Positions 29,139-45,791 of a DNA stretch of 64,000 nt are shown piece by piece. A program made the translations under genes and the position numbers. Origin of the DNA: a virus (taxonomy: Duplodnaviria; Caudoviricetes); the IMG/VR virus record IMGVR_UViG_3300039452_000187, positions 33,555-97,554 of that record; one strand, written 5' to 3'. Under the pieces are notes generated by a model, which saw nothing but the letters and a program-made list of their open reading frames with translations, had not been told where the DNA came from and did no database searches. The stretch's first letter is position 1, and each line of letters starts with the position of its first letter.

Positions 29139-32100
29139 TTAACTGTGCCGTGAATAAATGGACAAGAATTTTTGAGCCAGCAACTCCATCTCCGATGCCA
29201 ACCGCTCGTACTGCTTGGCGAGTTCGCTCCGTCTGAACGGTACTTCCTCCCCTTGCTCAACCCGATGTTGCTTCCATTCGCGCCGGTCCCGCTCGGCCGC
29301 CCCAAAGCCGGTCGTCGCCGGCACACGCTTCCTTCGTTCCTCTTCCCGCTGGTGCTCCGTCAACCGGTCGAACGCCTCGCTATACGCCTCATCTTCCGAC
29401 AGCGGTTCTGGGTTGCCGCCGAGCAACAAGTCATACAGCCGGCCGGGTAAATCGTCTTCGTGCCCGTTGAATTCCTCCGGATACTTCGCCGCCACGCTCT
29501 GGGCCACGTCGTCCAGCCCGCGCACCGCGTCCGCATCAATGCCCCGGCTGGCGCGGGCCTTCAAGGTGTCCAGGCTGCCGTACCCCTGGCTCTCCGACAG
29601 CTGCCGCGCATCCTTGAGGAGCCGCGTCCGGTCCTTCTTGAACTCGCGATCGTGGGCCAAAATCTCCGCCGCCAACTGGTGTAGGTGCTCGCCCTTCAGC
29701 CCCGACTTCCTTGCTTTCTTCGCCCAGATGGCCCGTTCATAAGCCCGGCTCTGGGCCAGCTGCTGCCGGTGCGACGGCTCCGGGGACTCGGCTTCCGACT
29801 CCGGCTCATCGAACACTTTGCCGGTATGGGCTACCACCGCCGGCCCGTGCCGTGGCTGGTGGAGGTTGACGTGCCCGGATTGCTGCAATTCGTGCAATGC
29901 CTCGTGCAAGGGCGAGCCCGGCTCGTGCTTGTCGCCGGTCAGGCGCTGCAAGGTGCCCACGTCAGCCTCGCCCGTGTCCAGGTGCTGTAGCAGTTGCTTT
30001 TTCAGGTGATGGTGCTGGGACGGCTTGGACCGTGCGTCGCCCTTCTCCGACAACGCAGCGATTTTCTTCCCGGTGAACTTAGGGTGCCCCTTGGCAATCC
30101 TTCCGTCCTTGCCGATACATACAGGACTGCCGCCGCTGCGCTTGCCGCCGTGGCCCTCGTGGGCACCGATCGTGATCCAGGTACACGAACCGGAACCACT
30201 GGACTTGCTCCGCTCATAACCCTCTGGATCTTCACGCCGCCCAAACCGGTCAAACAGGCCGCGATTGGGGACCGTGTTACCGCCGAAGAAGCCCGGCGCG
30301 GATACCGGGGGCTTAGGCTTGACGGGCACAGCTTCCCCTGGGTCCGGCTGTGCCTGGTCGGTCGGTTGTCGGTCGAACCACTCGGCGAAGCTCAGGCCGT
30401 GTTTCGGACCGCCCAGCGTGCGCGACTCGTTCCATTCCTTCTGCCACGAGGCACGAGGCTTGGTCACCGTGTAGCCGTGCGGAGACTGAATGGTCACAGG
30501 ATCATGCGGACCGGTCAGGTAAGAACCGACGTTCGCCAGCGCCCGTCCGAAGGACTTCACCCGCATCTTTCCACGATTGACCGGATCAATGACGGTCAGC
30601 CCTTCATCCGGCGCCAGAGATACCTGGCCGTCCTTGCCCACCTTCAGCCGGGCCAACTCGTCGGGGTGAACCCGGGCGCCGTTGGCCAGGGTGACGTAAT
30701 GCCGAATGGGCCGGCCGGTGGCGTCACTCAAGATAAAGGCATCCGGCGTGTACTCGTGGCCGTAAATGGGGTCGCCGTGGACGGTCTGCCCTTTCTCGAC
30801 CCTGGGAACTTTCACGTCGCGGTAGCGGTCACTCACCGAGAGCTTGCCCTGGCGTTGCAGCTGCAAGGCGGCCCGGAGATCGTCGCCGCGCACTTCGGTC
30901 TTGCCGGTGAGCGGTTGGCCAGCGTCCGGCGATGGAGCCTCGTTGAAGAGAGATGGTCGCTCGGTGGCTGGGGCTGCAGCCGGGGAAGCAACCGGAGTTG
31001 ATGCCGGCGCCTGAACATGCTGTGTCTGATCGGCCGGACCCACGGACCCCAGAGCCTTCCCAGACGCCACCGGCAGCAACTCCGGGCGCGGGTGATCCTC
31101 CGGCATCCTGGGCCAACCACTGAAGCGGTAGCGCTGCACCTGGTTGGCGTGCAGCAGCACCGCCCGAAACGCCTCCGGGGTCAGGCCAGTCTGCGGTGCG
31201 ATCTCGGCATAGAGATCGGCCAGCGGGATATTCGCACCCTTGGCCTGGAAGTGCCGGACCACGGCCGCATCGATGGCAGCCAAGGACCGGTTGAGCGTGT
31301 CAGTACCGGGCAGGTGGGCCAAGTCGCCGCGCGGGTCGGGGGTGCCGGTTTCCCGACCGTGAGCGATCGCCCGCAGCAGTTCGTTGGCTTGCCGGTTATG
31401 GTCGGCCGGATCAGTAGTTGCAGCCGTTGCTGGTTCGCCGCCCGCCAGCAGTTCCTGAACCTCCGCATCCGTTTTGCCGCGTGCCTCTTCCTTGTGAGTC
31501 AAACCGGCCAGCATGCGCCGCTGGGCCGGACTCATGGCGGCCACTTCGTCCGGACGGTAGCCGTGAGTCGCCGCCTTTGCTTTTGGTGGCGCCCACACCT
31601 TGCCCCCGCGTGGTCCCGTCCGCACCAGCGTCCAATCCGGGCTCGGCGGCGTCGGCCCGTGGTACTCGGCGGCGAACCGCTCCGGGACGTTGGCAGTTGG
31701 CGTCATGGTCCGTAAGGGCTGCGACGCGATCGCCCGTGAGGCGGCCGGCCGTCGCATGTCACCCTGGTAGAGGATCCACGCCTCCGTCGCTTCCTGGCGC
31801 TGCTCCGGCGTGCGGGCAGCGCCTAAGAAGTGTTTCTCAAGGATTTGCAACTGTTGCTCAGCTTTCCCGTCGCTCATCGCCTCCGAAGGGACATCGCTAT
31901 AGAACGCATGTTCAATCATGTGGAGATCAAGACCGGCATTGCGTTTGATCTCAGGGTAGGCGTCCTCGCCGCTACGCCAAAGGGTATGCGTGGCGTCGTT
32001 GATGTCGTCTTTCAGGTAGTCCAACACCTGCGCGGCAAAGATCCGTGCCCGGTTCTTGAGGCCCTCAAACTTCTCGACAGGCTTGCCGGTCAGTTGGGCC

Positions 32101-34904
32101 AACTCTGCCGCCGCGGCGGTCGCCGCCTGGAGGCAGGCGCCCTTGAACTCCGTGCTCAAGCCGCGCCAGACCTCCCGCAGTTGCTGCTGCTTTTGCCGCG
32201 GCTTCAGGTCGGACGTCAACAGGCCAATAATCTGCTCATTGGCCGCAGCGATCTGGCCCAGCGCGGGGTGAGTTTCAGCCGCATGTTTGTGCTCGTGTAC
32301 CCACTGCAAATCTCCCGTGGGCGGTCGGTGGTAGCCCGGCTCCGGCTCGTCGGCGCCCGCATGGTCATGCTCACCTGGCATCGTGTCGCGGTACACCTTG
32401 CGACCGGTGCGACTGCTCACCCAATAGCTGGCGCCGCGCGGCCCCGTCTGTCGCGTCCACTCATTCCCGCCTTCTCCAGCTGCAAACCGTGCCGGCCGCT
32501 CCCGCCGCTGCTGCCTTCCCTTTCCATCCACCGGCGGCATCGTCTCCACCCCCGGCAGCACAAACAACCGCCCTCCATCAATGGGTTCCTGGGCAATCCC
32601 CAGCACCCCGTGCATGTCCAGCCCTTCCACCCGCCCGCGCCACTCCACCGCCATCGGCCACTTGGCCCCAATCAACCCGGGCACTTTCTGTGTGGCCTTC
32701 TCTCCGAGATAGACCGTCAGGAAATTCTCGGCCGCATCCCCGTAGCCGCCCAGGCCCCACGATTCCACCCGGTCCGACTGGCTAATCCCGATGAGCCGCA
32801 TCTTCGAGTGCCGGCCGCGCTGGGCCAATCGCCGGATGAGCAGCCCGGCTTCGTTGGGCAGTTCGGCTACCGTGTCCGGGACCTCATCCCAAATAATCGT
32901 GACCGGCTCGAAGTCCGCGTGCCCTTCTTGCAGCGCGACCCCGCGCCGCTTCATCTCCCCCAGCAAGGCCGCGAGGGCCTGCTGGATCGGCTCGTAGTCG
33001 CCATCGGGGGCCACGGTCACCGTCGGCAAGCCGCCCCAATTGCCCGGCTCCCAGAGCGGGTCGATGACAACGAGGTGGTCGTTGGAGACCGTGGCCAGCG
33101 CCTGCGCGAGGACAGTTTTCCCCGATTTGGTCGGCCCTATGATTCTCAGGTGCGGGGCGGCCGTCAGGAGCAGCTGCAACCACTGCCGGGGCTCGGTCGG
33201 CGTGCCGGCCGCGTAACGCTCGGGTGCCTCGTCGCGGGACAGCTTCGCGGAGCCATCGGCCACGGTATGCGGCATGGGTGCGACACCGTTGGAATGCGCC
33301 GCTCCGTTGGGCGATTGCCCTGGCGGCTGCGCCTTCGGTGAACCGTTGGGTTGGCCGCCGCCCAGCATCCCGAGCAGCCCACCCATACCCCCACCGCCCG
33401 GTGCCCCGCCGCCTCCCCCTGGTTGCTGGGGCTGCTGCTGAGTCTGGGGATTCCTGAGCACATCATCCCCTTGTTGCGGCTTGCTCAACCCGGCAAACCC
33501 GAGCACTTCCTCCGTCTTGACCGGTGCCCCCATGCTGTACGCCTTGCTCGCCGCCTCCAATTGGTCCTTCGCGTTCGGCTTGTCGACCTCAAAGACCCAC
33601 TTGTGCCGATACTCTTCCCCCGGCCGGTTCCAGCGCTGGAGCACCGGCACCAGGTCCGTGGTCAGCGTGTCACCGAGGTTCTGGGCGTCATATTTCGTCA
33701 GTCGGTATTTGGTATCCGCCATGAACTCCGTGTCATGGGTCCCGAGCCCCGAGCTTTCCGAGCGACTACTGCCCGTCTGCCCGACGATATACCGCTCAAT
33801 GATCCCCTCGACATGCTCCTGCAGCTTCACCAGTGTTTCGGACCCTGACATGCTCATTTCGAGCTTATCCACCCCCGCCCCTTGCTTCTCGGAGCCGATG
33901 GGGCGCGGCCACACAATAACCGTGTTGTTCGACATTTCATTCGCGGCCTTGATCGCCGCGTTCTCGCTCTGCGGATTGCCGGCCTCGTAGTAGAAAATCA
34001 GGACCCCCTGGCCGACTTTTTGAATGAAGTCGCAGACGTTGCCGAGCCATTCTTTCCGCAACCAGTCCAGCCAGTAGATGCGGTGCCGCACCCCCACCCC
34101 CTGGACGCCGCCGGCCATTTCCCCCTCGAAGTAGTCCGCGTCGTCCATCTCGTGCTGATGGATCAGAAAGCGCTCACGCCAGTACGGGTCGCGGAGAACG
34201 AGGGCGGTGCCGCGATCGGTGAGAATGGACGTGGCCTTGGGCACGCCGCGAATCCAGGCCGGGTTGACCAGGATAAGCGGGGTGCCGTCCTCGATGTACT
34301 CCTTCTCACCGGGCAGGCGGAAGCGGTATTGGATCTTGTCGCCGTTAATCGGATAAAAGCCGTTGGCCGACAGCTGCCGCCGCCCCAGCCGTTGCTGCCA
34401 CACGTAGGATAGGCCGACCGCGTAGCGCCCATACCAAATCGCGTCCAGCAAACACATGAGCAGCTTCTGAAAATGGCTGACGCGCTTGATGAGGGCCGTG
34501 AGCGCCGCCGCCGAGTCCTTCTGTCGCTGGTCTTTCGCATCCTCCGGTTCCAGGTGCCAGCCGAGCTGGGCCGTCGCCAGTCGCCGCTCTTGGAGCAGCC
34601 CCATGAGGAACGCATCACGCCGCATGCCCAGAGCGTCTTCCCGCGACGTCCGCATCGCCTCGTCCCAGCGCCAGCTGTAGACGCGCATCGCCGAGCCGAA
34701 AATGCCGGTGTAGGTGAGCACATGGGGCAGGGGGAAGACTCGTTCGCCGGGGTCCGGGTGGCGGCCCGTGCCGTTGCTGCCGTTGGCCGCACCGAGCCGG
34801 TCGTTCAAGCTAATCGGCTCGCCGTCGGGGCCATAGAGAACGGGCTGGCCGGCGCGGTCGCGGTGGAGAGGGGGCAGGTCGGGCCGGTAGGGGTTCGTCG
34901 GCAT
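29139..34904 (-). CDS. Portal protein (Mu gp29/DUF935-like) fused to an FtsK/HerA-like P-loop ATPase and further domains (~1920 aa)
   Basis: LLDAIWYGRYA, IVGQT..SGLGT..H portal motifs; GPTKSGKT, LVVIDP, EMKRR, IIWDE, RGRHSKMRLIGISQ. Confidence 0.8.
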   Translation of the reverse strand: MPTNPYRPDLPPLHRDRAGQPVLYGPDGEPISLNDRLGAANGSNGTGRHPDPGERVFPLPHVLTYTGIFGSAMRVYSWRWDEAMRTSREDALGMRRDAFLMGLLQERRLATAQLGWHLEPEDAKDQRQKDSAAALTALIKRVSHFQKLLMCLLDAIWYGRYAVGLSYVWQQRLGRRQLSANGFYPINGDKIQYRFRLPGEKEYIEDGTPLILVNPAWIRGVPKATSILTDRGTALVLRDPYWRERFLIHQHEMDDADYFEGEMAGGVQGVGVRHRIYWLDWLRKEWLGNVCDFIQKVGQGVLIFYYEAGNPQSENAAIKAANEMSNNTVIVWPRPIGSEKQGAGVDKLEMSMSGSETLVKLQEHVEGIIERYIVGQTGSSRSESSGLGTHDTEFMADTKYRLTKYDAQNLGDTLTTDLVPVLQRWNRPGEEYRHKWVFEVDKPNAKDQLEAASKAYSMGAPVKTEEVLGFAGLSKPQQGDDVLRNPQTQQQPQQPGGGGGAPGGGGMGGLLGMLGGGQPNGSPKAQPPGQSPNGAAHSNGVAPMPHTVADGSAKLSRDEAPERYAAGTPTEPRQWLQLLLTAAPHLRIIGPTKSGKTVLAQALATVSNDHLVVIDPLWEPGNWGGLPTVTVAPDGDYEPIQQALAALLGEMKRRGVALQEGHADFEPVTIIWDEVPDTVAELPNEAGLLIRRLAQRGRHSKMRLIGISQSDRVESWGLGGYGDAAENFLTVYLGEKATQKVPGLIGAKWPMAVEWRGRVEGLDMHGVLGIAQEPIDGGRLFVLPGVETMPPVDGKGRQQRRERPARFAAGEGGNEWTRQTGPRGASYWVSSRTGRKVYRDTMPGEHDHAGADEPEPGYHRPPTGDLQWVHEHKHAAETHPALGQIAAANEQIIGLLTSDLKPRQKQQQLREVWRGLSTEFKGACLQAATAAAAELAQLTGKPVEKFEGLKNRARIFAAQVLDYLKDDINDATHTLWRSGEDAYPEIKRNAGLDLHMIEHAFYSDVPSEAMSDGKAEQQLQILEKHFLGAARTPEQRQEATEAWILYQGDMRRPAASRAIASQPLRTMTPTANVPERFAAEYHGPTPPSPDWTLVRTGPRGGKVWAPPKAKAATHGYRPDEVAAMSPAQRRMLAGLTHKEEARGKTDAEVQELLAGGEPATAATTDPADHNRQANELLRAIAHGRETGTPDPRGDLAHLPGTDTLNRSLAAIDAAVVRHFQAKGANIPLADLYAEIAPQTGLTPEAFRAVLLHANQVQRYRFSGWPRMPEDHPRPELLPVASGKALGSVGPADQTQHVQAPASTPVASPAAAPATERPSLFNEAPSPDAGQPLTGKTEVRGDDLRAALQLQRQGKLSVSDRYRDVKVPRVEKGQTVHGDPIYGHEYTPDAFILSDATGRPIRHYVTLANGARVHPDELARLKVGKDGQVSLAPDEGLTVIDPVNRGKMRVKSFGRALANVGSYLTGPHDPVTIQSPHGYTVTKPRASWQKEWNESRTLGGPKHGLSFAEWFDRQPTDQAQPDPGEAVPVKPKPPVSAPGFFGGNTVPNRGLFDRFGRREDPEGYERSKSSGSGSCTWITIGAHEGHGGKRSGGSPVCIGKDGRIAKGHPKFTGKKIAALSEKGDARSKPSQHHHLKKQLLQHLDTGEADVGTLQRLTGDKHEPGSPLHEALHELQQSGHVNLHQPRHGPAVVAHTGKVFDEPESEAESPEPSHRQQLAQSRAYERAIWAKKARKSGLKGEHLHQLAAEILAHDREFKKDRTRLLKDARQLSESQGYGSLDTLKARASRGIDADAVRGLDDVAQSVAAKYPEEFNGHEDDLPGRLYDLLLGGNPEPLSEDEAYSEAFDRLTEHQREEERRKRVPATTGFGAAERDRREWKQHRVEQGEEVPFRRSELAKQYERLASEMELLAQKFLSIYSRHS

Positions 34905-35040
34905 AGCAGGCCGTTCCAATAAAGGATCAGCCGCATGCCAGACCAAGCGGGAAGAGTGCGCGGCCGTGCCGGTGATGAGCCGGCAGCCGGGAAGTCAGGA
35001 TGCTTGGATTCTATCCGAGAAAGGGAAAGGTTGCGAAAGC

Positions 35041-35076
35041 GAAAAGGGCCGGCGCCGAGGAAAGGTGGCGCCGGCC
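35041..35076 (-). terminator. Intrinsic terminator upstream of the portal gene
   Basis: GGCCGGCGCC 10-bp stem followed by CTTTTC on the minus strand. Confidence 0.6.
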
Positions 35077-35595: not shown

Positions 35596-35952
35596 TTACC
35601 CCGGGAACGCTTTGGCGGCCGTCGTCATTTGTTCCAGGGCCAGAATGAATTCCAGGTACGCCTTGCCGATGGTTTCCAGTCGTTGGGCGGCGGCGCGGAG
35701 GCACTTCAGACAGGTGACGTGTGGCACGATGGTCGTCAGCTGCTGGTTGGTTGCGTCGGCGCCGCACAAGGCCGCATGGGTATCACCGGGCATCCAGTGC
35801 CAAACGTCCTGGGCCATTTGCTGGCGATAATGCCGGACCTCGCTGACCAAACGCAGCAAAAGTGTTCGCGCCGCCCGGTGAACGCTCAGATCGGCACGGC
35901 CGCAATAGTCGGCCTGGGCGAGTTCATCAGCAGTAAGTAAAGGTTCAGTCAT
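35596..35952 (-). CDS. Hypothetical protein with H-x-ALCG...CxxC zinc motif
   Basis: ATGA overlap with the upstream gene. Confidence 0.55.
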   Translation of the reverse strand: MTEPLLTADELAQADYCGRADLSVHRAARTLLLRLVSEVRHYRQQMAQDVWHWMPGDTHAALCGADATNQQLTTIVPHVTCLKCLRAAAQRLETIGKAYLEFILALEQMTTAAKAFPG

Positions 35953-36344
35953 TGGGTCAACTCGTGCAGGGTTCCGGGTCCGGCAAACCAGTAGATCGTC
36001 AGACAGTCCGGGCACTGACCGGCCCAAACGTGGAACAACTCGAGCCGGTGCCCGTCGAGCCGGCGCCAAAACTTGTGGCGCTCGAGCATCACGTGGGTTT
36101 CCCGCAGCACCGAGTCCAAGCCGAGAAAAACGGCCGGCGGCGGCCACAAAGATCCGCAAGGAATATCAATGCCAGGATCGCACCGGGGACAGACAACCAC
36201 GTGCCGAGCCAGGTCCGGCGCCGGCGGCTCACTGAAACTGGCCAGCCGGAGCCACGGCACTTCGTTGCGGATCTTGAAGTCCCAGCACGGTGCCAGGTGG
36301 ATGTACTGCGGCGGCGCCTGCTCGTAAGTGTCAACGGCGGCCAT
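35949..36344 (-). CDS. Hypothetical zinc-binding protein
   Basis: CPRC...CPDC. Confidence 0.55.
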   Translation of the reverse strand: MAAVDTYEQAPPQYIHLAPCWDFKIRNEVPWLRLASFSEPPAPDLARHVVVCPRCDPGIDIPCGSLWPPPAVFLGLDSVLRETHVMLERHKFWRRLDGHRLELFHVWAGQCPDCLTIYWFAGPGTLHELTQ

Positions 36345-36435
36345 GCGCGGCTCACTTGCGGCCCTTGCTGGCGTAGAACGGGTTCTCAGCGTTAACCTGT
36401 CCCATTACCTCACCCGTCCGAAAGAGAAATCTTGC

Positions 36436-37125
36436 TCACACCGCCGCGTCCGCGCCCTCGTCCTCCGCGAGGTCCTCCGGCGAGATGGCCTCTGTGGTTG
36501 GTGGCATCCCTGGCTCGGTGCTGGTCAGCGTGTCCGTTGCCGGTCCGGCTTCAGGTTGCTGCTCCGGCGCCACCGCCACCGCTGCCTTTGGCGCCGATTC
36601 CTTCTTCACCTTGGCCTTGGCCGGTGACGCCGCCGCCGGTTCCTGCTTCCCCACGATCCCCGGCTGGTCCATCGCCGGATCGTAGTACGCTCCCACTGCC
36701 TGAAAGTACACCTGATACTTCCGGCCCCCGCGCTTTCCCTGCCCCTCACTGAGCGGCGTCACAAAGACAATCTGTGTCTCCACCGGACAATCGGTATTGC
36801 TACGGCGCAGCTGCCGCACCAGGCACCGCTCCCCGAACCACAATTCCAGGTCCTCATCATCAGACCGCAACTGGTCCTGCAATTTCTCAGCGGCCACCCG
36901 GTCCTCGCATGTGACCGTCGCCGCCAGGGCCAGCGTGTACTTGGTGTACTGGTACTCGCCCCGGAAGTACCACGGCAGCAAGGTGAAGGCATGCAGCGCT
37001 ATGTTCTCGGTGAGTTCGGCGCCGTGGTAGCGGAAGCGGCGCCCAAGATCTAAAACCGGAGTCGCAGTCTTATCTGGGCTGCTATCACGCTGCTTGTCTT
37101 TCTTTGCCGCCGCTGCACTGGACAT
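36436..37125 (-). CDS. Hypothetical protein
   Basis: 229 aa; GAGG RBS. Confidence 0.6.
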   Translation of the reverse strand: MSSAAAAKKDKQRDSSPDKTATPVLDLGRRFRYHGAELTENIALHAFTLLPWYFRGEYQYTKYTLALAATVTCEDRVAAEKLQDQLRSDDEDLELWFGERCLVRQLRRSNTDCPVETQIVFVTPLSEGQGKRGGRKYQVYFQAVGAYYDPAMDQPGIVGKQEPAAASPAKAKVKKESAPKAAVAVAPEQQPEAGPATDTLTSTEPGMPPTTEAISPEDLAEDEGADAAV

Positions 37126-37189
37126 ACCCTCAACCCCTTCTTTGCTCGAAACTTGCTCGATCGCTACTCAATCCGTGCTCAATCCACGA

Positions 37190-37648
37190 TCAACCGTCCC
37201 CGAGCTTCTTGATGGCTTCCTTGGTGATGCCGCCGCCCTCCGGGTCTTCGTCTTCAATCGTCAACTCAACGCGCGGCGGCGCCAACTGTTGTTGCAGCGC
37301 CCCCTGCACCGTCCCCGCCACCTGCAGCACGCCGGCCGGCTCGAGTCCGGCATAGCGGTAGACGCAGAGGTTGGGGTCCAGAGCCGTCGGCAACCAGGCC
37401 ACGAGGCCCTTGAAGCCGGTATGGGCCAAGAGCGCGGCAATGAGGGTATCAGCGGCGAGGCCGCTGAGCGTCTGCCGCACCAGGTCGGCCACGGTACCGT
37501 CGATCAGGTCGCCGCGGGTGATTCGTTCGGCCAATTCCTCCACGAGCACCTTGGTGGGCAGCTGCCGGAAAATGTTGAGCGGAGCCGGCGCGACCGGTGC
37601 CCCATTGACCGTACCTTGCTGGTCCGTTGCTGCTGCTGTGTCGCTCAT
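37190..37648 (-). CDS. Hypothetical protein
   Basis: Start directly follows the upstream stop. Confidence 0.6.
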   Translation of the reverse strand: MSDTAAATDQQGTVNGAPVAPAPLNIFRQLPTKVLVEELAERITRGDLIDGTVADLVRQTLSGLAADTLIAALLAHTGFKGLVAWLPTALDPNLCVYRYAGLEPAGVLQVAGTVQGALQQQLAPPRVELTIEDEDPEGGGITKEAIKKLGDG

Positions 37649-37966
37649 TTAGACTTCGCCTCTTTCTTCGCTCGCCGTGGGCATGAGTTCGTTTCTCGTC
37701 AACACCAATATGGACGCAGGCGCGTCGGGGCGCGACCACTCCTGAATCTCCACCGAACAATGGCGGGCGATCAAGTCGCTCACCCGCTCCTGAGCCGCCG
37801 CCTCGGTGGGACAGCCGAAGCGCAGCATCTCGGTTTCCCCGAAAGCGCGGGTGCGGTAGCCGGTGACCACCCAGAAGCGGAGCGGCGGCCGGTTCGGCTG
37901 AACCGCCCTGTCCGCAGCTGCCGGTGCCGGTCCGAGTGGTACTGTCGGTTTGCTCTTGCGACCCAT
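37649..37966 (-). CDS. Hypothetical protein
   Basis: 105 aa in operon. Confidence 0.55.
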   Translation of the reverse strand: MGRKSKPTVPLGPAPAAADRAVQPNRPPLRFWVVTGYRTRAFGETEMLRFGCPTEAAAQERVSDLIARHCSVEIQEWSRPDAPASILVLTRNELMPTASEERGEV

Positions 37967-37977
37967 GCTCTTTCCAA

Positions 37978-38469
37978 TTAGTTTTTGCGATCCCTGCCCT
38001 GTCGTTCGCGAGCTTTGCTGTAGGCCGCCGCCGCCGCAATCTTCTTGGCGTGCTCTTCATTGTCGGGCCGCACCTGCCCAATCAGTCCGGTTTCCTTGTA
38101 GGACTGCATCATCTCCTGAATGTTTCGCTGAATCACCTGATCGCTGCTGCCTTGTTTGAGTGGCATGACCCGCCCCCAATTCACGAAGAGCCACAGTGGC
38201 ACCCGACCGTTGAGGGCACGCTGCGCCAGCCGATCCATCCGCTGCCGGAAAGACATCGCCGTGCGCTGCAGGCAACGATAGGCTCGCGGCTCATCCAGAC
38301 ACAGTTGCATCATCAACAACCTCTTGACCCGCTCGATCGTTCTGAAGTCCCGATCGGCATGCCAGGGCTTTGGTACCGGAGCTAGATCCTCAAAGCGATG
38401 AACGAGGATGTAACCCTGCGCCGGGGGCTGAGCAATCAAGGCTTCGGCATGAGGAGATTCTGTCATCAT
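37978..38469 (-). CDS. ANTAR-domain protein fused to a small phage MPLKxGSS...AYSKAR domain
   Basis: IERVKRLLMMQLCLDEPRAYRCLQRTAMSFRQRMDRLAQRAL fits the ANTAR consensus IERAKGILM...EEEAY..LR..AM..R..M..VA. Confidence 0.75.
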   Translation of the reverse strand: MMTESPHAEALIAQPPAQGYILVHRFEDLAPVPKPWHADRDFRTIERVKRLLMMQLCLDEPRAYRCLQRTAMSFRQRMDRLAQRALNGRVPLWLFVNWGRVMPLKQGSSDQVIQRNIQEMMQSYKETGLIGQVRPDNEEHAKKIAAAAAYSKARERQGRDRKN

Positions 38470-38490
38470 TGGTTCAGTTCGCTCCGTTGC

Positions 38491-39090
38491 TTAACTAGCG
38501 ACGCGCCGCTTGCGTGGTCGTCGCACCCGCGCCACCGGCGGCGCTACGGCCACGTAGGCACCGGCGCCGGCGGCGCCGCCCAAGCGCTGGTAAGCGTAGC
38601 CGCCGGCCCGCAGCACCTGCCAGACGAACCGCCCCGGAGAGGCGGTATCCAGGAAGTCCAGGAACACCTGCTCCGGCACCGCGTAATACTCGTAGTGGGA
38701 GCCGTTGCGGAAGGTCACTTCGAGCACCGAGTCGCCGCGACGGTAGCGGATCGAGTCGACGTTCGACGAGTTCAAGTGGACCCAGCGGCCAGCGAGGGTA
38801 GTATCGTCGTTGGGGCTGGACCACCATTGGGGCCCGGGGAGCGTCTCCGGTTCCGTGGGCTCTGGGGTCACGGTCAGCGGCGTCCATTCGATCACCGGCT
38901 GAGTCGGCGCGGGCGGCTGCGCTTCGACAACCGGCGCCGGCTGGACGGTTGCCGGTTGGGGCAGCCGGTCGAACCACCGCGCCAGCCAGGACCGTAGCCG
39001 CGCGGAGCCGCGCACCGGCTTGCCACCGGCCGCAGCGCTCCCGCCGCCATCGCTGCCGATCCAGTTTCGTAGCCAGTTCCGCAGCCCCAT
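38491..39090 (-). CDS. KTSC-domain protein
   Basis: SSNVDSIRY...LEVTFRNGSHYEYYAVPEQVFLDFLDTASPGRF. Confidence 0.9.
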   Translation of the reverse strand: MGLRNWLRNWIGSDGGGSAAAGGKPVRGSARLRSWLARWFDRLPQPATVQPAPVVEAQPPAPTQPVIEWTPLTVTPEPTEPETLPGPQWWSSPNDDTTLAGRWVHLNSSNVDSIRYRRGDSVLEVTFRNGSHYEYYAVPEQVFLDFLDTASPGRFVWQVLRAGGYAYQRLGGAAGAGAYVAVAPPVARVRRPRKRRVAS

Positions 39091-39098
39091 ACCACCCC

Positions 39099-39812
39099 TT
39101 ACACAGATGCCGCCGTTGCTGCCGCTGCCGCTGCCGCTGCCGCTGCACTGAGGCGTTCCCGCCGCCTTTGGGCTTCCGCCGCCACGGCCGCCCGATCGGC
39201 CAGCAACTCTTCCCCCTCCGACTCGCCCTCAGCCTGCTGCCGTTGCCGCCACCGGAGAAACTGCGCCATCTTGCCGAGCAGGTGCGACGGCAAGGCCCGG
39301 TCGTGCTCCTGGTGGAGCGGCCCTTGCGGGGTCTCCACAACCACGCCGGCGTGATAGTGAATACCCTTGCCGCCAATCTTCACCTGGTACCCGTACCGCT
39401 CTGAGTCAATCTTCACGTCGCCGGGGTGCCAGTGGCATTCGCCGCGGCCGTAACGCTGCATCATCACCGCGATCTTGTCAGGGCTACCGGGGAGCGCCCG
39501 CGTCGGCTCTGTGGGCACCCGCAGGCCGCAGCAGCTGCAACAGCCGGGCATAGGACTGCCGCCGCCGTTGAAGTCATTCGGGCAGTGGCCCGCGAGGGCC
39601 TCGGCCAGCGTGTTCTGCACTCCCACCCCGGCCCGCTGCTTGCGGCGCTTCACGGGGGTCAGAGCGAGGGCCACCACTGGTACCGTCCGGCCAGCAGCCC
39701 GCGACAGTTGCCGTTGCCAGACCACCGCCACCACGGCTGTAGCCGCCGCCCCATCGCCACCGCGAATCGCGCGGGCGGGCGCTGTCCTGGGAATCGCCGT
39801 GGCCGTTGCCAT
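39099..39812 (-). CDS. Hypothetical phage protein with PTxALPGSPDKIAVM..R..RG..WHPGD motif
   Basis: GGAG RBS; poly-Ala C-terminus. Confidence 0.55.
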   Translation of the reverse strand: MATATAIPRTAPARAIRGGDGAAATAVVAVVWQRQLSRAAGRTVPVVALALTPVKRRKQRAGVGVQNTLAEALAGHCPNDFNGGGSPMPGCCSCCGLRVPTEPTRALPGSPDKIAVMMQRYGRGECHWHPGDVKIDSERYGYQVKIGGKGIHYHAGVVVETPQGPLHQEHDRALPSHLLGKMAQFLRWRQRQQAEGESEGEELLADRAAVAAEAQRRRERLSAAAAAAAAAATAASV

Positions 39813-39834
39813 TGCTCCGCGCGCCCTCCGAAGT

Positions 39835-40623
39835 CTAACCTGGTGCCTGAATCGCGAAATCCTGCCCACAGTGCGGACAAGTCACCATCGCCAGCAGCGG
39901 CTCGGCCCCGTCGCCTTCCCCGCCCGCCGCCGTCTGTGCGTCCTCATCCTGGTCCTCTTCCGCCTCCGGCCCGTCCACCGGTTCCTCGGGGTCCTGTTCT
40001 TCATCCTGCCCAGACACAACCGGATTTGTGCTTCCTGCCACTTCTTTTGTGCGGCCCGACAGTCCCTCGGTGTTCATGGGATAGGTGCTGCCGCCGCGCT
40101 GCACCAACCGCTCCGTAGTCGCTGGTTTTTCCTCCGACGGTTCGCCCGTGGCGCCGGTGTCGCCCGCATCTATCTGGAAACCGTTACCAGATAGCTCGGC
40201 CCGAATCTCGGCCACGAGCGGGTGGCTGACGGCACAGCGCCGGGCAATTTCCCGGTCCGACCACTGGCCCCATTCCTCATCGCGGAGCAGTGTTTCCACG
40301 GCCCGCCGCTTGTCCGCGTTGGTGCGCCTGAGGCCGTGCTTGCGGTTGGCCCCGGCAGCGTAGAGGATGGCGTCGCGGCGCGTGCCCGGCTGCACTTCCA
40401 CAATCATGTGCTTGCGTGCTGCGTGCGAGTGGGCGCCGTAGCGGTGAAAGCCGTCGGCCAGCCAGTAGTCCTGGCCGTCGTAGAACACCACGGCCGGCGG
40501 CAAGTCGTCGAGCACCTCGGCCAGGTCGACGATGACGTCGCGGCTCAGCTCGGCGCGCATCTGGGTGCCGCCGTCTACCCGGATCTTTGTGAGCCTCAGA
40601 CTGGTGAGGTTCGCCTCTGCCAT
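39835..40623 (-). CDS. ParB-like N-terminal domain plus HTH protein
   Basis: TQMR..LPPAVVF..YWLADGFHR; WSDREIARRCAVSHPLV. Confidence 0.85.
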   Translation of the reverse strand: MAEANLTSLRLTKIRVDGGTQMRAELSRDVIVDLAEVLDDLPPAVVFYDGQDYWLADGFHRYGAHSHAARKHMIVEVQPGTRRDAILYAAGANRKHGLRRTNADKRRAVETLLRDEEWGQWSDREIARRCAVSHPLVAEIRAELSGNGFQIDAGDTGATGEPSEEKPATTERLVQRGGSTYPMNTEGLSGRTKEVAGSTNPVVSGQDEEQDPEEPVDGPEAEEDQDEDAQTAAGGEGDGAEPLLAMVTCPHCGQDFAIQAPG

Positions 40624-40857
40624 CGGCTGCCGCTATCGGAAGGACTGGCCAGAACCGGCCCCGGTGTGGGACCCCTACCGCACAGTGTACGGTGCGTGGG
40701 AAGGCGAAGCAACCGGAAAAGTGACACAGCAGTGTCAGTGGAAGGGAAAAAGGATCATTACAGGCGGCTCTCGGGTAGTTGGCCGGAAAAGATCTTGCAG
40801 ACACAACCTTTGAGGCTGTTGATCTGTGCTGTCGGAACGGCATACACCTTGGATCGT

Positions 40858-41211
40858 TTACCCGGCATCAAATGGTTCCTTGGTTGCGGCCGTGTCTGCA
40901 GATCTTTTTGCCGCCTCTTCTTTTGTCTCCTGCAGCCACGTCGCCATGTCCGTCCCCTCTCCCTTGTCCTTGTCCTTGTCCTTAGTCGGCTCCTTGAACC
41001 GCTTGGTCCACTGCCAAATGCGCCGCAAAGGGATGTCCAGGATTCGTGCGACCAGCAGTTCCAGCTCCGCCAGGGCGGCGAGGTTGCTGCCGTCGAGGAA
41101 GCCGGCCACGGCGGCAGCGAGAGAGATTTCGGCGTCGGTGGGCTCTGGACGCTCAGCCAGGTGCGGCCGGAGCTGGGCGTAGGTGGTGGATTCGTGGGAG
41201 AGCGGGTTCAT
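40858..41211 (-). CDS. Hypothetical protein immediately downstream of the CRISPR array
   Basis: MNPLSHES..., 117 aa. Confidence 0.5.
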   Translation of the reverse strand: MNPLSHESTTYAQLRPHLAERPEPTDAEISLAAAVAGFLDGSNLAALAELELLVARILDIPLRRIWQWTKRFKEPTKDKDKDKGEGTDMATWLQETKEEAAKRSADTAATKEPFDAG

Positions 41212-41249
41212 AAGGTAAGTACAATAAACTGATCCATTGAAAATCGTCA

Positions 41250-41720
41250 GTCTCAGTAACCAACCCACTGAGCAGGGTCTTCCAACCTGGACGGGGGCAG
41301 CTTGCCGGCGGCCGGTTCGGGGTCTCAGTAACCAACCCACTGAGCAGGGTCTTCCAACTCATCTTCCTGCTGCTGCCGCTCCTGGGCCACTTTGTCTCAG
41401 TAACCAACCCACTGAGCAGGGTCTTCCAACGCGAATACTGCCACAAGAGAAATGAGCAAATCTGGTCGTCTCAGTAACCAACCCACTGAGCAGGGTCTTC
41501 CAACTTTCCATAACAGCTGCCGCGGCCGCGGATGGGCGGTCTCAGTAACCAACCCACTGAGCAGGGTCTTCCAACGGCCCATCCATGTGGCGTTCCCGCC
41601 CGGCGGCATCGTCTCAGTAACCAACCCACTGAGCAGGGTCTTCCAACGGATGGCAGAAGCGTCGACCAAAGGGCGATAACAAAGTCTCAGTAACCAACCC
41701 ACTGAGCAGGGTCTTCCAAC
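41250..41720 (-). CRISPR. CRISPR array: 7 identical 37-bp repeats and 6 spacers of 34-37 bp
   Basis: Repeat (minus strand) GTTGGAAGACCCTGCTCAGTGGGTTGGTTACTGAGAC; plus-strand starts at 41250, 41322, 41394, 41468, 41539, 41611, 41684; orientation inferred from the cas gene and the AGAC 3' end. Confidence 0.98.
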
Positions 41721-41912
41721 GGTCAACCTCTAAAACCGTGCTACCGCAAGCCGTTGAGTTGCTGTCCGCGAGAGGTTGACCAAAACAACTCGCCAAGGTA
41801 GCGGCAGCACCAACCAGGTTGTCAAAGATCGGTTCTAAATCAAGACTTACGCCACGCGAGAGCCATCACTGCACTATTCTGGCTGCAACCGCAGGTCAGT
41901 TCATGACTTCCA
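41721..41912 (-). promoter_or_regulatory. CRISPR leader
   Basis: Non-coding, between cas12 and array; 11-bp inverted repeat abutting the first repeat; GATCTTTGACAA motif. Confidence 0.7.
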
Positions 41913-43949
41913 TTAAAGGGCCACAGAACCGGCTCTTTCACCATCGCCGCGCTCGCGATACCACCGCAGCATGTTCAGACAGGCATTGCGGTCCTGGTCC
42001 CGCACTTCCTGACTACCACTGTAGCAGTGCTCTAATTGGGCCTTGTCCATGTCCTCGTCCACAACCTCCGTGGTCGCGCATTTGGTCGTCGTCTGGCTCG
42101 CCGGTGCCTTCGGCGCTTCACCTGCATTCTCGCAACAAAGTTGCACCAGCCGGCCAACGGCCGCACAGCGCCGATAGTCGAGAGGGATATACCCCTCCAC
42201 TTGATCGACCTCGGGAGTATCCTGTAAATCGCGCCAGTTGACATCCTCGGTGATGACTGCATGATAGCGGCGGCGCAATATAGCGGCCAAGTTGCGGTAC
42301 ACGTCATCGCGCCAGCGAATGGCTCCCTTGAGAACGAATGCCTGCCAGTCATACAAATGTTTATCCTGCTTGCGCCACCATTCCAGCACCGGGAAGATGG
42401 ACTGGTCCCCGGTGAAGCGGCGGAAACGCCACTTGAGGACCAACTTGGCCAACCGATCCTCGCTACGCCAGGAGGCCAGGGTTGCTGTCTCCTCTTCCAA
42501 CCACTTCGGCACGTCCACACCACGCTTGCGGTTGGCCAGGAGCGTCTCGATGGCCGCACAGCGTTCTTCCAGATCATTCCGCCAGCGGATGGCACTCTTC
42601 TCCATCTTGGCTCGCCTGTTTTGCGACACATCCTTGAGCTTGGGCAACCTCTGGAGCTTCCATTCCTGCTCCGCTGCCGACTTCCGCAGGTGCTGAAGTT
42701 CCCTGGCTAGGTCGGCAATCGGCAAGTCCTCCGCCTTGAGCCAAGTCACGAGTGTCGCATGATAGACGTTGAACGTCCGGTCCCGAATCTGTTGCAAGTC
42801 GTCATGCTTTTCCCAGCGTTTCAAGTCCGCGTGCGGCAAGATGAGTTCCCCTTCGGCGCCATCACTGCCAATCCAGTAGGCCACGCGCAGCCCGTTGGGC
42901 CGTAGCCGCCAACCAACATCGACGGCCACATATCCAGACTCGGCCTGATCCTCTTTGGTGAATCCATCCTCGCGCGAAATCACCAGTTGCAAGGCCCATT
43001 CATCATGAGTACCGATGCGCCGTTTGAGGCCGTAGCTCCATTTGATCTGCGCATCCGGTGGCAGGTCACGATGGAGCGTCACCACGAATTCCGCCCAGAT
43101 CGGTGCGCGCCCGTCCGAGCCAATCCGCACCGACGCGAGATAGCGCCGCACCGCCGCCTTACTCGGCTTTTCGCCTTCGCCCAGCGGTTTGGGCCGCAGC
43201 CGAAAGCGCGTATCCATTCCAGCGAAGGCATCGGCCACGCTCAGACCGCCCTGGAACTGGACGGCGATCTTCCCGTCCCCGCGGAAGCGCTTGAAGCGTG
43301 GCGGTTTGCCTTCGCGAATGCCCTTAAGAGACTGTTCCACGGTCAAATAGGTGCCCCAGAACACTCTACAAGCGGCCCGCAACTCCTTGAGCTTGGCATC
43401 GTGTTCATCCTCGACCCGGTTTATTTCGTCCTGAAATTCCGGTTTTTCGGAGAGGAGTCGCCGCCGCCGTCGATACTCCTGCCGCAGCGCCGCCAGGACT
43501 AACCGTTTCTTGCCCTGCCGCTTCACTTCGGCTTTGTACCAGTCGTGCAACTCCTTGACCCTGTCGTCATTTCCCCAGCACCGCGCCTTCGCTTCCTTGA
43601 GAGTGATCGTCAACCGCTTACGCGCTGCCCGCAAAGATTTAATCCGGTCCTTGTCGGCATCCGTGGTCACGCGCTTGCGTGCTTTGGCGTTCTTGGCCTT
43701 CGTTTCCCTGATCGCAGCCTCCAAAGCCTCAGTGGCCTCGGCTAGCCGCTGCTCCAAGGTTTCGACTTCCGGGAAATAGCGGCGCAAAGCCGCCAAAGAA
43801 GCTTCCCGTCGTTCGCGTTCGGCTGCCACCAGGTTATTTCTGTAGCGATTGGCGTCATAGATCTGCTGGCGAACCGCCTCTCCATTGATAGTCGGAGCCT
43901 TGGCACCATAGGAGTAAATTCGTGATGGCTTCGCGTCGTTGCCGTGCAT
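41913..43949 (-). CDS. cas12m: Type V CRISPR effector, Cas12m (V-U1/V-M)-like, 678 aa
   Basis: FWGTY, FRGDGKIAVQ, HRDLPPDA, VAVDVGWR (RuvC-I), W....LA.L...WR, LEWWRKQDKHL, ITED (RuvC-II), DQDRNA (RuvC-III); long N-terminal coiled coil; adjacent array. Confidence 0.85.
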   Translation of the reverse strand: MHGNDAKPSRIYSYGAKAPTINGEAVRQQIYDANRYRNNLVAAERERREASLAALRRYFPEVETLEQRLAEATEALEAAIRETKAKNAKARKRVTTDADKDRIKSLRAARKRLTITLKEAKARCWGNDDRVKELHDWYKAEVKRQGKKRLVLAALRQEYRRRRRLLSEKPEFQDEINRVEDEHDAKLKELRAACRVFWGTYLTVEQSLKGIREGKPPRFKRFRGDGKIAVQFQGGLSVADAFAGMDTRFRLRPKPLGEGEKPSKAAVRRYLASVRIGSDGRAPIWAEFVVTLHRDLPPDAQIKWSYGLKRRIGTHDEWALQLVISREDGFTKEDQAESGYVAVDVGWRLRPNGLRVAYWIGSDGAEGELILPHADLKRWEKHDDLQQIRDRTFNVYHATLVTWLKAEDLPIADLARELQHLRKSAAEQEWKLQRLPKLKDVSQNRRAKMEKSAIRWRNDLEERCAAIETLLANRKRGVDVPKWLEEETATLASWRSEDRLAKLVLKWRFRRFTGDQSIFPVLEWWRKQDKHLYDWQAFVLKGAIRWRDDVYRNLAAILRRRYHAVITEDVNWRDLQDTPEVDQVEGYIPLDYRRCAAVGRLVQLCCENAGEAPKAPASQTTTKCATTEVVDEDMDKAQLEHCYSGSQEVRDQDRNACLNMLRWYRERGDGERAGSVAL

Positions 43950-44080
43950 AGAAGATTACCCGCTCTACTGACCGATTATTCCTGCTACCAATTTGACTGA
44001 CGAAAGTTGCCGCCCGCAACCCAGGAAGAACTTGCACAGACGGCCCGGCAGCAATAAAGACATAAAATTCAGCAAAACAA

Positions 44081-44239
44081 CTATTTATCCGTATCCGCGA
44101 TGCCAACCTTATCTTCCAGCCGCCGGATTCGTGCACCCTGAGACCGAACCATCGGGATCAAGACGCAGCAATAAAGGACCATGAGCCCCGCGGCAAACAG
44201 CAAGGCGGCCAGGAACCCGATTAACTCGCCCTTTATCAT
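44081..44239 (-). CDS. 52-aa single-TM membrane protein (not in the ORF track)
   Basis: MIKGELIGFLAALLFAAGLMVLYCCVLIPMVRSQGARIRRLEDKVGIADTDK; GGAG RBS. Confidence 0.55.
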   Translation of the reverse strand: MIKGELIGFLAALLFAAGLMVLYCCVLIPMVRSQGARIRRLEDKVGIADTDK

Positions 44240-44303
44240 AGCTCTTTCTCCGCATCCATCTCACGCATCCGCCGGCCGTGTCGAACCAGGCAGTCGTATT
44301 GCG

Positions 44304-45791
44304 TCATCGCTTCACCCCGAACAGTCCCCTTCTCACTACCGCCGAGCCACTCCGGCCGTCCCCGCCCTCACGGTCCCGTCGCGTCCCGCTTTCGTTCGCG
44401 CCCAGCCCCGCCGCGTGCGCCTGCTGCCGGGCCGTCAGGCCAATCTGTTCCCGTTCCGGCAGCTGCGAAGGCGCCGTAAACGGCACCCGCCCCGAACCGT
44501 CCAAATGCGCGACCATGTACCTGAGCCCATCCATGCCGTGATTGTTCTTATCAATCGGCACTTCCCCCTTTTTCCGGTTGTTCGTCAGGTCCCACACGTA
44601 CCCGTCAAACTCCTCTTCCGTACACGTGGGCAGCTTCAATTCCACCAACCCGCTATCCCGCTCCACCAGCGAATCCCGGAGCAGGAACAACCGCCCGCGT
44701 CCGTCCCCAGCCTTCCGTAACCGTGCCGCCACATGCTGCACGCCCGCTTCAATCGCCTTGACCGCTGGCACCGTCGACCGCCCCAGGTACTTTTCCAACG
44801 TGGCCCGCCCCTCGGCGTCATGGTCGCAAATGACCGCCGCCGGCGCCGGCTCGTCCTGGCTCAGTTCCCGAATTAACTTCGCGTGGTCCTCCACGAGCCG
44901 CTGCGCATGGTAAATCTCGCGGTAGCGGAATAGCCGGTCGTCCTCATCCTTGGCCCACCACTGGCACACAAACGCATTGGTGAACCCAAAGTCGATCGAC
45001 AAGTACCGCGACCAAGCTGCCGGAATGTCGAACCTATCAATCAGGTGCACCGCCCGGTCCCACTCCTCGTACACCACCCCTTCCGCCTGGACCCAGCGGC
45101 CATAGCGGAGCCGCAACTTGCGCGGCCCCGTCATGTTGTCGAGCTTTTGCAGGTACTTCTCGCCCTCTGGCGTCCACCCCTGCTTCTCGGCATCCCAGAT
45201 GGTGGGATTGTCCTCGTGCCTGGTGTCGATGAGGCGCGTCTGCCCATTGTCGCAGCGCTTCTTGAGCCAGTGCGTGGGCGTGTCGGGGTTGGTGTCAGCG
45301 ATGAGTTGCTGGTAGGGCATCCGGCCATTCCGCAAGGGCCGGGTCAGCAGTTCCCACTCGTTCTCGGTCAGCTCAATCGCTTCCTGGACATAGACGATAT
45401 CGTATTCCGTGGACAGGGTGCGCGAGGGCTTGTCGAGGCCGCCGACGACCAGCGTCGAGCCATTGGGGTAGTGGTAGGCTTGCCGTAGCCGCCGCTGCCC
45501 CCCGGACGAGAGGGCCGGGTGCCCCACCGGCAGCACCTTTTGCTCAAAGGTCACCAGGCCGGATTCAGTGAGCGAGTCGCGGGTCTTGCGGACAATCAGC
45601 CCACGCATCCCCGGGTACTTGGTGGCGCACGCATGGAGCTTTTCCAGGCACGTCCGCGACTTGCCGGTGCCGGCCGGCCCCGAGAGGAGCAGTTCGCCGT
45701 TGCGATCGCGAAGCACTTTCAGCACCGTCGGGTTCATGAGGAACGGCCGGCGGTCGGGGTGCAAATCGGCTTCGGGGACGGTGACCTGCAT
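44304..45791 (-). CDS. terL: Terminase large subunit
   Basis: GPAGTGKS Walker A, VYVQEA Walker B, DTNP, SIDFGF nuclease motif, NHGMDGLRY. Confidence 0.95.
   Translation of the reverse strand: MQVTVPEADLHPDRRPFLMNPTVLKVLRDRNGELLLSGPAGTGKSRTCLEKLHACATKYPGMRGLIVRKTRDSLTESGLVTFEQKVLPVGHPALSSGGQRRLRQAYHYPNGSTLVVGGLDKPSRTLSTEYDIVYVQEAIELTENEWELLTRPLRNGRMPYQQLIADTNPDTPTHWLKKRCDNGQTRLIDTRHEDNPTIWDAEKQGWTPEGEKYLQKLDNMTGPRKLRLRYGRWVQAEGVVYEEWDRAVHLIDRFDIPAAWSRYLSIDFGFTNAFVCQWWAKDEDDRLFRYREIYHAQRLVEDHAKLIRELSQDEPAPAAVICDHDAEGRATLEKYLGRSTVPAVKAIEAGVQHVAARLRKAGDGRGRLFLLRDSLVERDSGLVELKLPTCTEEEFDGYVWDLTNNRKKGEVPIDKNNHGMDGLRYMVAHLDGSGRVPFTAPSQLPEREQIGLTARQQAHAAGLGANESGTRRDREGGDGRSGSAVVRRGLFGVKR

Follow-up and report, generated by a model that had tools for sequence, protein, structure and literature searches.

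We analyzed a 64,000-nucleotide stretch (the window) of the IMG/VR virus record IMGVR_UViG_3300039452_000187 and focused on one open reading frame (ORF), P0001, that joins a phage portal to an FtsK/SpoIIIE-type motor ATPase and a long set of further modules. The record is a 97,554-bp virus genome with direct terminal repeats, rated 100% complete, and the window covers its bases 33555-97554; P0001 denotes the portal–ATPase fusion under study, P0002 its downstream neighbor, and all other P and L numbers denote relatives. Read from a TTG codon, the basis of our residue numbering, P0001 is a single open frame of 1,935 codons with no internal stop (Table 1). The first ATG, at 34904, corresponds to residue 15 and gives a protein of 1,921 residues; a public record of the P0001 protein begins at this same ATG, which is the likely start codon. 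GC content at the third codon position exceeds that at the other positions in all 100-codon blocks (0.67-0.87), and therefore one frame is coding throughout P0001. The gap between the upstream gene and the portal gene holds an inverted repeat, rich in GC, with a T-rich run behind it (~35020-35075, minus strand; read by eye); the pair looks like an intrinsic terminator, and because this hairpin and T-run lie upstream of 34904 the P0001 gene probably opens a transcription unit.

Table 1. Features at the portal–ATPase locus, in window coordinates
Feature	Residues	Position	Strand	Basis or remark
Whole ORF P0001: portal, linker, ATPase, cargo	1-1935	29139..34946	(-)	1,935 aa from TTG 34946
Mu-type portal domain	108-481	33504..34625	(-)	Pfam PF06074
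Gly/Gln/Pro-rich flexible linker	497-585	33192..33458	(-)	sequence
Tag 1, PERYAAG, directly before ATPase	575-581	33204..33224	(-)	
FtsK/SpoIIIE-type motor ATPase module	586-805	32532..33191	(-)	RecA-like beta-domain only
Walker A, GPTKSGKT	604-611	33114..33137	(-)	sequence
Walker B, TIIWDE	683-688	32883..32900	(-)	sequence
Tag 2, PARFAAGEG, disordered stretch behind ATPase	818-826	32469..32495	(-)	pLDDT <50 at aa 817-827
Small three-stranded beta module, WW-like pattern, then His-rich stretch	829-856	32379..32462	(-)	model strands aa 830-852
Cargo module 2	857-1087	31686..32378	(-)	no family match
Tag 3, PERFAAEYH	1088-1096	31659..31685	(-)	
Cargo modules 3-4	1097-1584	30195..31658	(-)	no family match
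C-terminal conserved unit	1585-1935	29142..30194	(-)	small beta element (WITIG...), winged helix-turn-helix-like stretch, helical domain
Next gene P0002, 2,098 aa		22831..29127	(-)	polyvalent protein; ART-PolyVal aa 322-442
Conventional large terminase TerL		44304..45791	(-)	phrog_2 E 7.8e-34

Domain organization of the portal–ATPase protein

An earlier note, made from the letters alone, had read positions 29139-34904 as one ORF that fuses a Mu gp29-like portal, a Gln/Gly linker, a complete P-loop ATPase and ~1100 aa of extra cargo, in a genome that also encodes a normal TerL, and our analysis agrees with each of these elements. The N-terminal domain matches the Pfam family Portal_Mu (PF06074) with E 1.4e-38 and 133.5 bits against a cut-off of 23.9, spanning model positions 7-330 of 336. 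Across the whole 97.5-kb genome, searches with the portal families PF06074, PF04860 and PF05133 returned this one match only, suggesting that P0001 is the portal of the phage, as the sole candidate from three families in a complete genome with a terminase. In the PF06074-type portal of JBD30, crown and wing remain inside the capsid (PMC11445458), and by analogy the C-terminal crown of the P0001 portal would face the head interior. The Gly/Gln/Pro stretch that follows is predicted to be flexible, with a predicted local distance difference test (pLDDT) score of ~57 at its modelled end. TerL, encoded 9 kb upstream of P0001, shares 52% identity with the terminase of Thermobifida phage P1312, and since a conventional TerL is present the ATPase module is not the packaging ATPase.

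The ATPase was identified through its fold. A sequence search against PDB chains returned no match below E 0.13, and a fold search was therefore required. AlphaFold2, run with a 97-sequence alignment, modelled the ATPase core with pLDDT 96-98, and Foldseek ranked the FtsK motor first among structures related to this model (6t8g, E 5.9e-8). The modelled fold is of the FtsK/TcpA/EccC type, closest to FtsK-type motors. With Escherichia coli FtsK, the module shares the EMxRR helix (aa 664-668), the LAQxGR motif (707-712) and SQS (722-724). The Walker A and Walker B motifs, arginine finger and SQ named in the earlier note are all present, and G604, S608, G609, K610, R668, D687, E688, R712, Q723 and S724 are invariant in 18 sequences of the clade of fused ATPases described below. 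Such constancy of catalytic residues across the fused clade shows that selection maintains the module as an enzyme. It lacks the FtsK alpha domain and has no winged helix-turn-helix (wHTH, gamma) domain directly behind the motor.

Recurrence of the fusion and likely origin of the motor

An exhaustive phmmer search of 1.84 billion representative proteins with the ATPase module returned 1,143 relatives. The best matches share 50-59% identity and belong to long proteins (744-2,833 aa) in which the ATPase lies at ~residue 425-800, and in 16 long proteins, P0001 included, the ATPase starts 420-600 residues from the N-terminus. These 16 fusions come from different samples and assemblers, and one of them, P0022, comes from another run, on an independent contig of 32 kb. 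Upstream of the ATPase, Portal_Mu scores above the Pfam cut-off in P0009, P0010, P0013, P0015, P0016 and P0022 and below it in P0020, and phmmer ties P0011, P0014, P0020, P0021, P0027, P0030 and P0038 to the same portal group. The domain architecture search that the earlier note had proposed thus finds the order Portal_Mu then FtsK-type ATPase repeatedly, and the possibility that note had raised, that the ATPase would prove separate in all relatives, is contradicted by portal–ATPase fusion in at least 16 proteins.

The portals that carry the motor are diverse. The P0001 portal has detectable similarity to P0004-P0008 and P0158 alone, and none of these carries the ATPase. Portals that do carry it fall into at least two further groups, with no phmmer or jackhmmer link to the P0001 portal, so that at least three portal lineages have the portal–ATPase order. 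The fused ATPases form one clade (SH-aLRT, Shimodaira–Hasegawa-like approximate likelihood ratio test, 96) nested among stand-alone proteins, and in each of the 16 fusions the ATPase is the first module behind the portal. In the portal relative P0007, an insertion of ~145 residues (aa 382-527) splits the portal match, starting with Cys and ending in TGN followed by Thr; it is intein-like by eye, and no Pfam intein family matched it at E <= 0.001.

This recurrence bears on the concern that assembly or a frameshift error created the long ORF, or that the fusion is decaying and its ATPase has lost function. Only one metagenomic assembly underlies the record, and in one relative the two parts do occupy different frames: in L012 (1-2759), the portal ORF ends in a Pro/Gly/Gln linker and the ATPase ORF lies in another frame with a 64-nt overlap, an arrangement that may stem from a natural split, from programmed frameshifting or from a sequencing error. 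Against an artefact, the codon-position bias is unbroken across the P0001 ORF, and the genome carries direct terminal repeats and is rated complete. Together, recurrence of the same architecture in diverged portals, a single ATPase clade and invariant catalytic residues make an artefact very unlikely.

The fusion is widespread in uncultured phages and absent from the sequenced isolates of the collection we searched: this GenBank-derived set of phage isolates contained no close relative of the ATPase and one weak match. A pattern scan of IMG/VR with the ATPase returned no close relative. One further copy heads an InPase protein with no portal adjoining (P0031), on a short 4.3-kb contig.

As stand-alone proteins, relatives of the ATPase measure 350-450 aa, and 97 of 112 carry a strongly hydrophobic 19-mer in the 40-200 residues before the ATPase. 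P0001 contains no hydrophobic 19-mer (maximum Kyte–Doolittle score 1.19); the portal of the fusion stands where these relatives have their membrane anchor, yielding the same layout of channel, flexible linker and motor as in FtsK/SpoIIIE. Several stand-alone relatives have an HTH-like tail, judged by eye from the alignment. One lies in a small element, flanked by Xre-type regulators and a tyrosine integrase, one beside a large serine recombinase, and one on a phage contig among short unannotated genes. These proteins resemble DNA translocases of mobile elements, of the mini-FtsK or Tra type. Cellular stand-alone copies with 37-38% identity (L009, L010 and L011) occur in Chloroflexaceae, in Oscillochloris and two metagenome-assembled genomes, and these copies and the actinophage-like TerL hint at a filamentous host.

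The exchange of anchor for portal suggests the main alternative to the reading given below, in which the motor stays tethered to the portal crown and works in the head of the producer cell on DNA pushed by TerL: 12 ATPases on ~85-residue linkers would form one or more rings coaxial with the channel and pull, ratchet, retain or organize the DNA. Such a role would fit the position of the portal at the site of the anchor, the long and flexible linker, the resemblance to FtsK/SpoIIIE, the placement of the ATPase first behind the portal in every fusion and across three portal lineages, and the adjoining portal and ATPase ORFs of L012, which stay neighbors although split. The portal-less P0031 copy and the presence of a normal TerL argue against it, a filling head may hold too little ATP, and the junction sequences described below point the other way; we consider this alternative unlikely.

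Junction tags, cargo and a proposed mechanism

Short repeated sequences mark the module boundaries of P0001. The pattern P-x-R-[YF]-A-A occurs three times (aa 575, 818 and 1088) versus 0.3 occurrences expected by shuffling, and elsewhere in the genome it is found in two other genes only, one of which is P0002. Tags 1 and 2 flank the ATPase, both in segments of low pLDDT (~57 before and <50 after), and tag 2 starts ~13 residues past the motor. Relatives carry PLQF[AS], PLRFA or KFA at the tag position before the ATPase, some with a longer HPR..G.F form, and a [QRK][FY][AS] match within 100 aa upstream of the ATPase occurs in 9 of the 16 fusions, where shuffling gives 2.0, and none of 2,000 shuffles reached 9. 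In P0002, the peptidase-like module is flanked by related [RQ]-Y-[AD] sites, PARYD and QERYD. A like tag thus stands before the ATPase and before other modules, and this is our main reason to view the ATPase as treated as cargo and not as part of the portal; the same observation opposes a motor that remains on the crown. As a separate observation, LPFDL or LPFEA with acidic and proline residues is repeated in the pre-ATPase linkers of P0027, P0034, P0035 and P0038. The Prp cleavage site of 80alpha, between F and A, resembles the [YF]-A of the tag (PMC5744158), and we kept Prp-type cleavage of the tags as an analogy only, as no Prp gene is present and the P2/P3 context is different.

Behind the ATPase, P0001 continues for 1,115 aa in which no Pfam or PHROG family was recognized, and a search with this region among shorter proteins returned only one further relative. 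The first element is a WW-like module, described from its pattern and predicted strands, with no match to Pfam WW; with the His-rich stretch (aa 824-881) it shares 53% identity with P0002 aa 190-247, and a second, partial WW-like motif lies at aa 1104-1118. We considered the tag as a ligand of the WW-like module and did not adopt this idea. In the C-terminal unit, a helical domain (aa 1726-1874, pLDDT ~90) recurs with 52-54% identity in the portal fusions P0005 and P0158. No PDB structure matched the AlphaFold model of aa 1585-1935 at E <= 0.001, and scores from an ESM Atlas look-up of the C-terminal part stayed below 0.8.

The genomic context is that of a polyvalent protein. P0002 begins 11 nt downstream of P0001 in a different frame, and in addition to its ART-PolyVal domain contains a MarR-type wHTH at aa 1531-1582 and a C39-like (C39_2, papain-like) peptidase match at aa 692-884 (E 0.0043, 18.1 bits); its other parts matched no family. 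The nearest portal relatives of P0001 bear ART, NUDIX or InPase modules in the place of the ATPase, and ATPase-bearing relatives append ART-PolyVal, 2H, Zeta-toxin or kinase-like modules behind it. With a portal, an ATPase, at least three unassigned modules and an ART-PolyVal neighbor, P0001 has the make-up of a polyvalent protein, in which domains of unrelated activity share one polypeptide in a virion-gene setting. Farther upstream, ~9 kb of ORFs on the minus strand (35600-44300) separate TerL from the portal gene, including a 678-aa ORF at 41913-43949 that matches no Pfam or PHROG family. Searches of ten neighboring ORFs of the structural region against Pfam and PHROGs recognized no family except TerL, and these profile searches found no major capsid protein, scaffold or protease.

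Our overall best reading, to which we give a probability of roughly 0.45, is that P0001 carries polyvalent, capsid-internal cargo on its portal crown, that this cargo is probably cut free and ejected, and that its motor then works on the entering DNA. Each of the 12 portal subunits would carry one FtsK-type motor and ~1,100 aa of further modules into the procapsid, and fusion to the crown would enclose this cargo in the head without a separate targeting signal. By arithmetic, the load amounts to ~1.8 MDa, roughly 3% of the DNA mass. The cargo would have to be detached for exit through the tail, and we infer cleavage at or near the tagged linkers; the candidate processing peptidase would be the C39-like domain of P0002, the only one found. 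Freed cargo would leave via the tail along with the DNA, and in a new host with ATP the motor modules may assemble a ring on double-stranded DNA and translocate, twelve copies being sufficient for two hexamers. The motor would most likely assist entry of the 97.5-kb genome, or clear or protect it. Enzyme-driven genome entry has precedents in T7, N4 and phi29, and proteomics has detected a large polyvalent protein in phi24B virions.

Several points weigh against this reading. Every functional step is inferred, from packaging, cleavage and ejection to ring formation, the DNA substrate, and the direction and purpose of pumping, and ring formation and DNA loading in particular are assumptions for a motor that lacks the alpha and gamma domains. 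Pfam FtsK_SpoIIIE (PF01580) gave no match to P0001 at E <= 0.1; the fused relative P0013 scores 23.5 bits, under the threshold of 24, and the stand-alone relatives P0042, P0090 and P0139 pass it with 26.8, 27.4 and 25.4 bits. A search of the genome for recognized prohead proteases (S78, S49, ClpP, Mu-like_Pro and Prp) found none, and the C39-like match of P0002 lies below the Pfam cut-off of 24, making it a weak candidate peptidase. Instead of a cut site, the tag could be a motif for docking or recognition. The constant position of the ATPase next to the portal could mean tethered action, although inheritance from one fusion event would also account for this position.

EccC-type relatives of the ATPase, moreover, move proteins and not DNA. 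An EccC/EssC-like ATPase might act on proteins before or during procapsid assembly, where it would unfold, chaperone or load the cargo or nucleate portal-centered assembly. The phage must fit two ~2,000-aa proteins into its head, and the failure to recognize either a scaffold or a protease is consistent with such a role; on the other side, the nearest sequence relatives are FtsK/Tra-like proteins of mobile elements, the EMxRR helix and LAQxGR are of FtsK type, and close portal relatives with equally large cargo manage without the ATPase. We regard a protein-acting ATPase as improbable.

The earlier note had offered two explanations, cargo loaded at 12 copies through the portal and cleaved off, or a translocase that assists DNA ejection. 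Cargo has gained comparative support from the ART, NUDIX and InPase modules of relatives, the ART-PolyVal neighbor and the shared tag, with cleavage still conjectural; a translocase fits the FtsK fold and the invariant catalytic residues, with the ejection-assisting role likewise conjectural. Both explanations are compatible with these results and are not exclusive of one another. A more speculative version, which we hold as somewhat doubtful, is that a tailed, terminase-using phage lineage captured an FtsK-type motor and tethers 12 copies at the inner face of the portal as a pre-made genome-import or genome-handling motor, either released into the host, where it would reel in the genome's second part, or acting as an internal booster or valve at the portal; the lineage may infect filamentous bacteria, where such pumps carry DNA from cell to cell.

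Comparison with known systems

Late genome entry has been worked out for few phages: transcription draws in the genomes of T7 and N4, an early protein acts in phi29, and T5 enters in two steps. If our reading is correct, a virion-borne ring translocase would represent a new solution to phage genome entry. The fusion unites in one polypeptide the portal–terminase and FtsK/HerA systems, pumps usually deemed hallmarks of separate virus realms, and an FtsK-type pump tethered to the portal of a terminase phage would surprise specialists. The ATPase clade and the junction tags may also serve as sequence markers for head-carried cargo in metagenomic phages.

Head-carried proteins delivered with DNA are known from several phages. 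T4 internal proteins and Alt bear a capsid-targeting sequence that is cut by the prohead protease gp21, and P1 DarA/DarB and the N4 virion RNA polymerase are further examples. All of them travel in the head and enter with the DNA, marked by a short peptide that is later taken off, and the P0001 cargo would resemble them in these respects. The N4 virion RNA polymerase and T7 RNA polymerase demonstrate that an injected or early enzyme can pull a genome in. P0001 differs from these systems in that targeting would occur through covalent fusion to the portal, no known prohead protease was found, and the motor would be a ring translocase and not a polymerase. In MuF fusion effectors (SPP1 gp7 / Mu gpF), as in P0001, a head protein carries variable C-terminal enzymes, whereas in P0001 the portal itself is the carrier; no MuF domain was found in the P0001 genome.

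Compared with FtsK/SpoIIIE, the small FtsK-like Tra proteins of integrative and conjugative elements, TcpA of pCW3 (6o1x) and the FtsK motor (6t8b), P0001 is without membrane anchor, alpha domain or adjoining gamma wHTH. It also differs from these FtsK-family systems in falling under the PF01580 threshold and in being encoded within a virion structural gene.

The closest parallels are polyvalent portal fusions. Iyer et al. 2017 (PMC5512222) described fusions of portals to PBECR, 2H and InPase domains, read as packaged and injected, with Burkholderia phage BcepF1 gp124 as a portal–InPase example (Iyer, Burroughs, Anand, de Souza, Aravind 2017, PMC5512222), and later work from the same group added portal fusions to Nudix, ART and 2H (PMC9503650). 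Among FtsK parts, the polyvalent proteins of PMC5512222 include only the wHTH (gamma) domain, and a fusion of portal and FtsK motor was not found in PMC5512222, PMC9503650 or the further literature searched. The view in the earlier note that this architecture is undescribed therefore needs narrowing, as portal–effector fusions are known (PMC5512222; PMC9503650), and holds for the FtsK-type motor within the literature searched. Like P0001, polyvalent portal fusions place a portal at the N-terminus and unrelated modules behind it, occur in phages with a terminase–portal system and stand beside a polyvalent neighbor; P0001 differs in that the conserved first module of its type is an FtsK-type motor and its remaining cargo has no family match. 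Portals bearing effector modules are thus already known, and what appears new, within the literature searched, is a conserved FtsK-type motor as the first module behind the portal.

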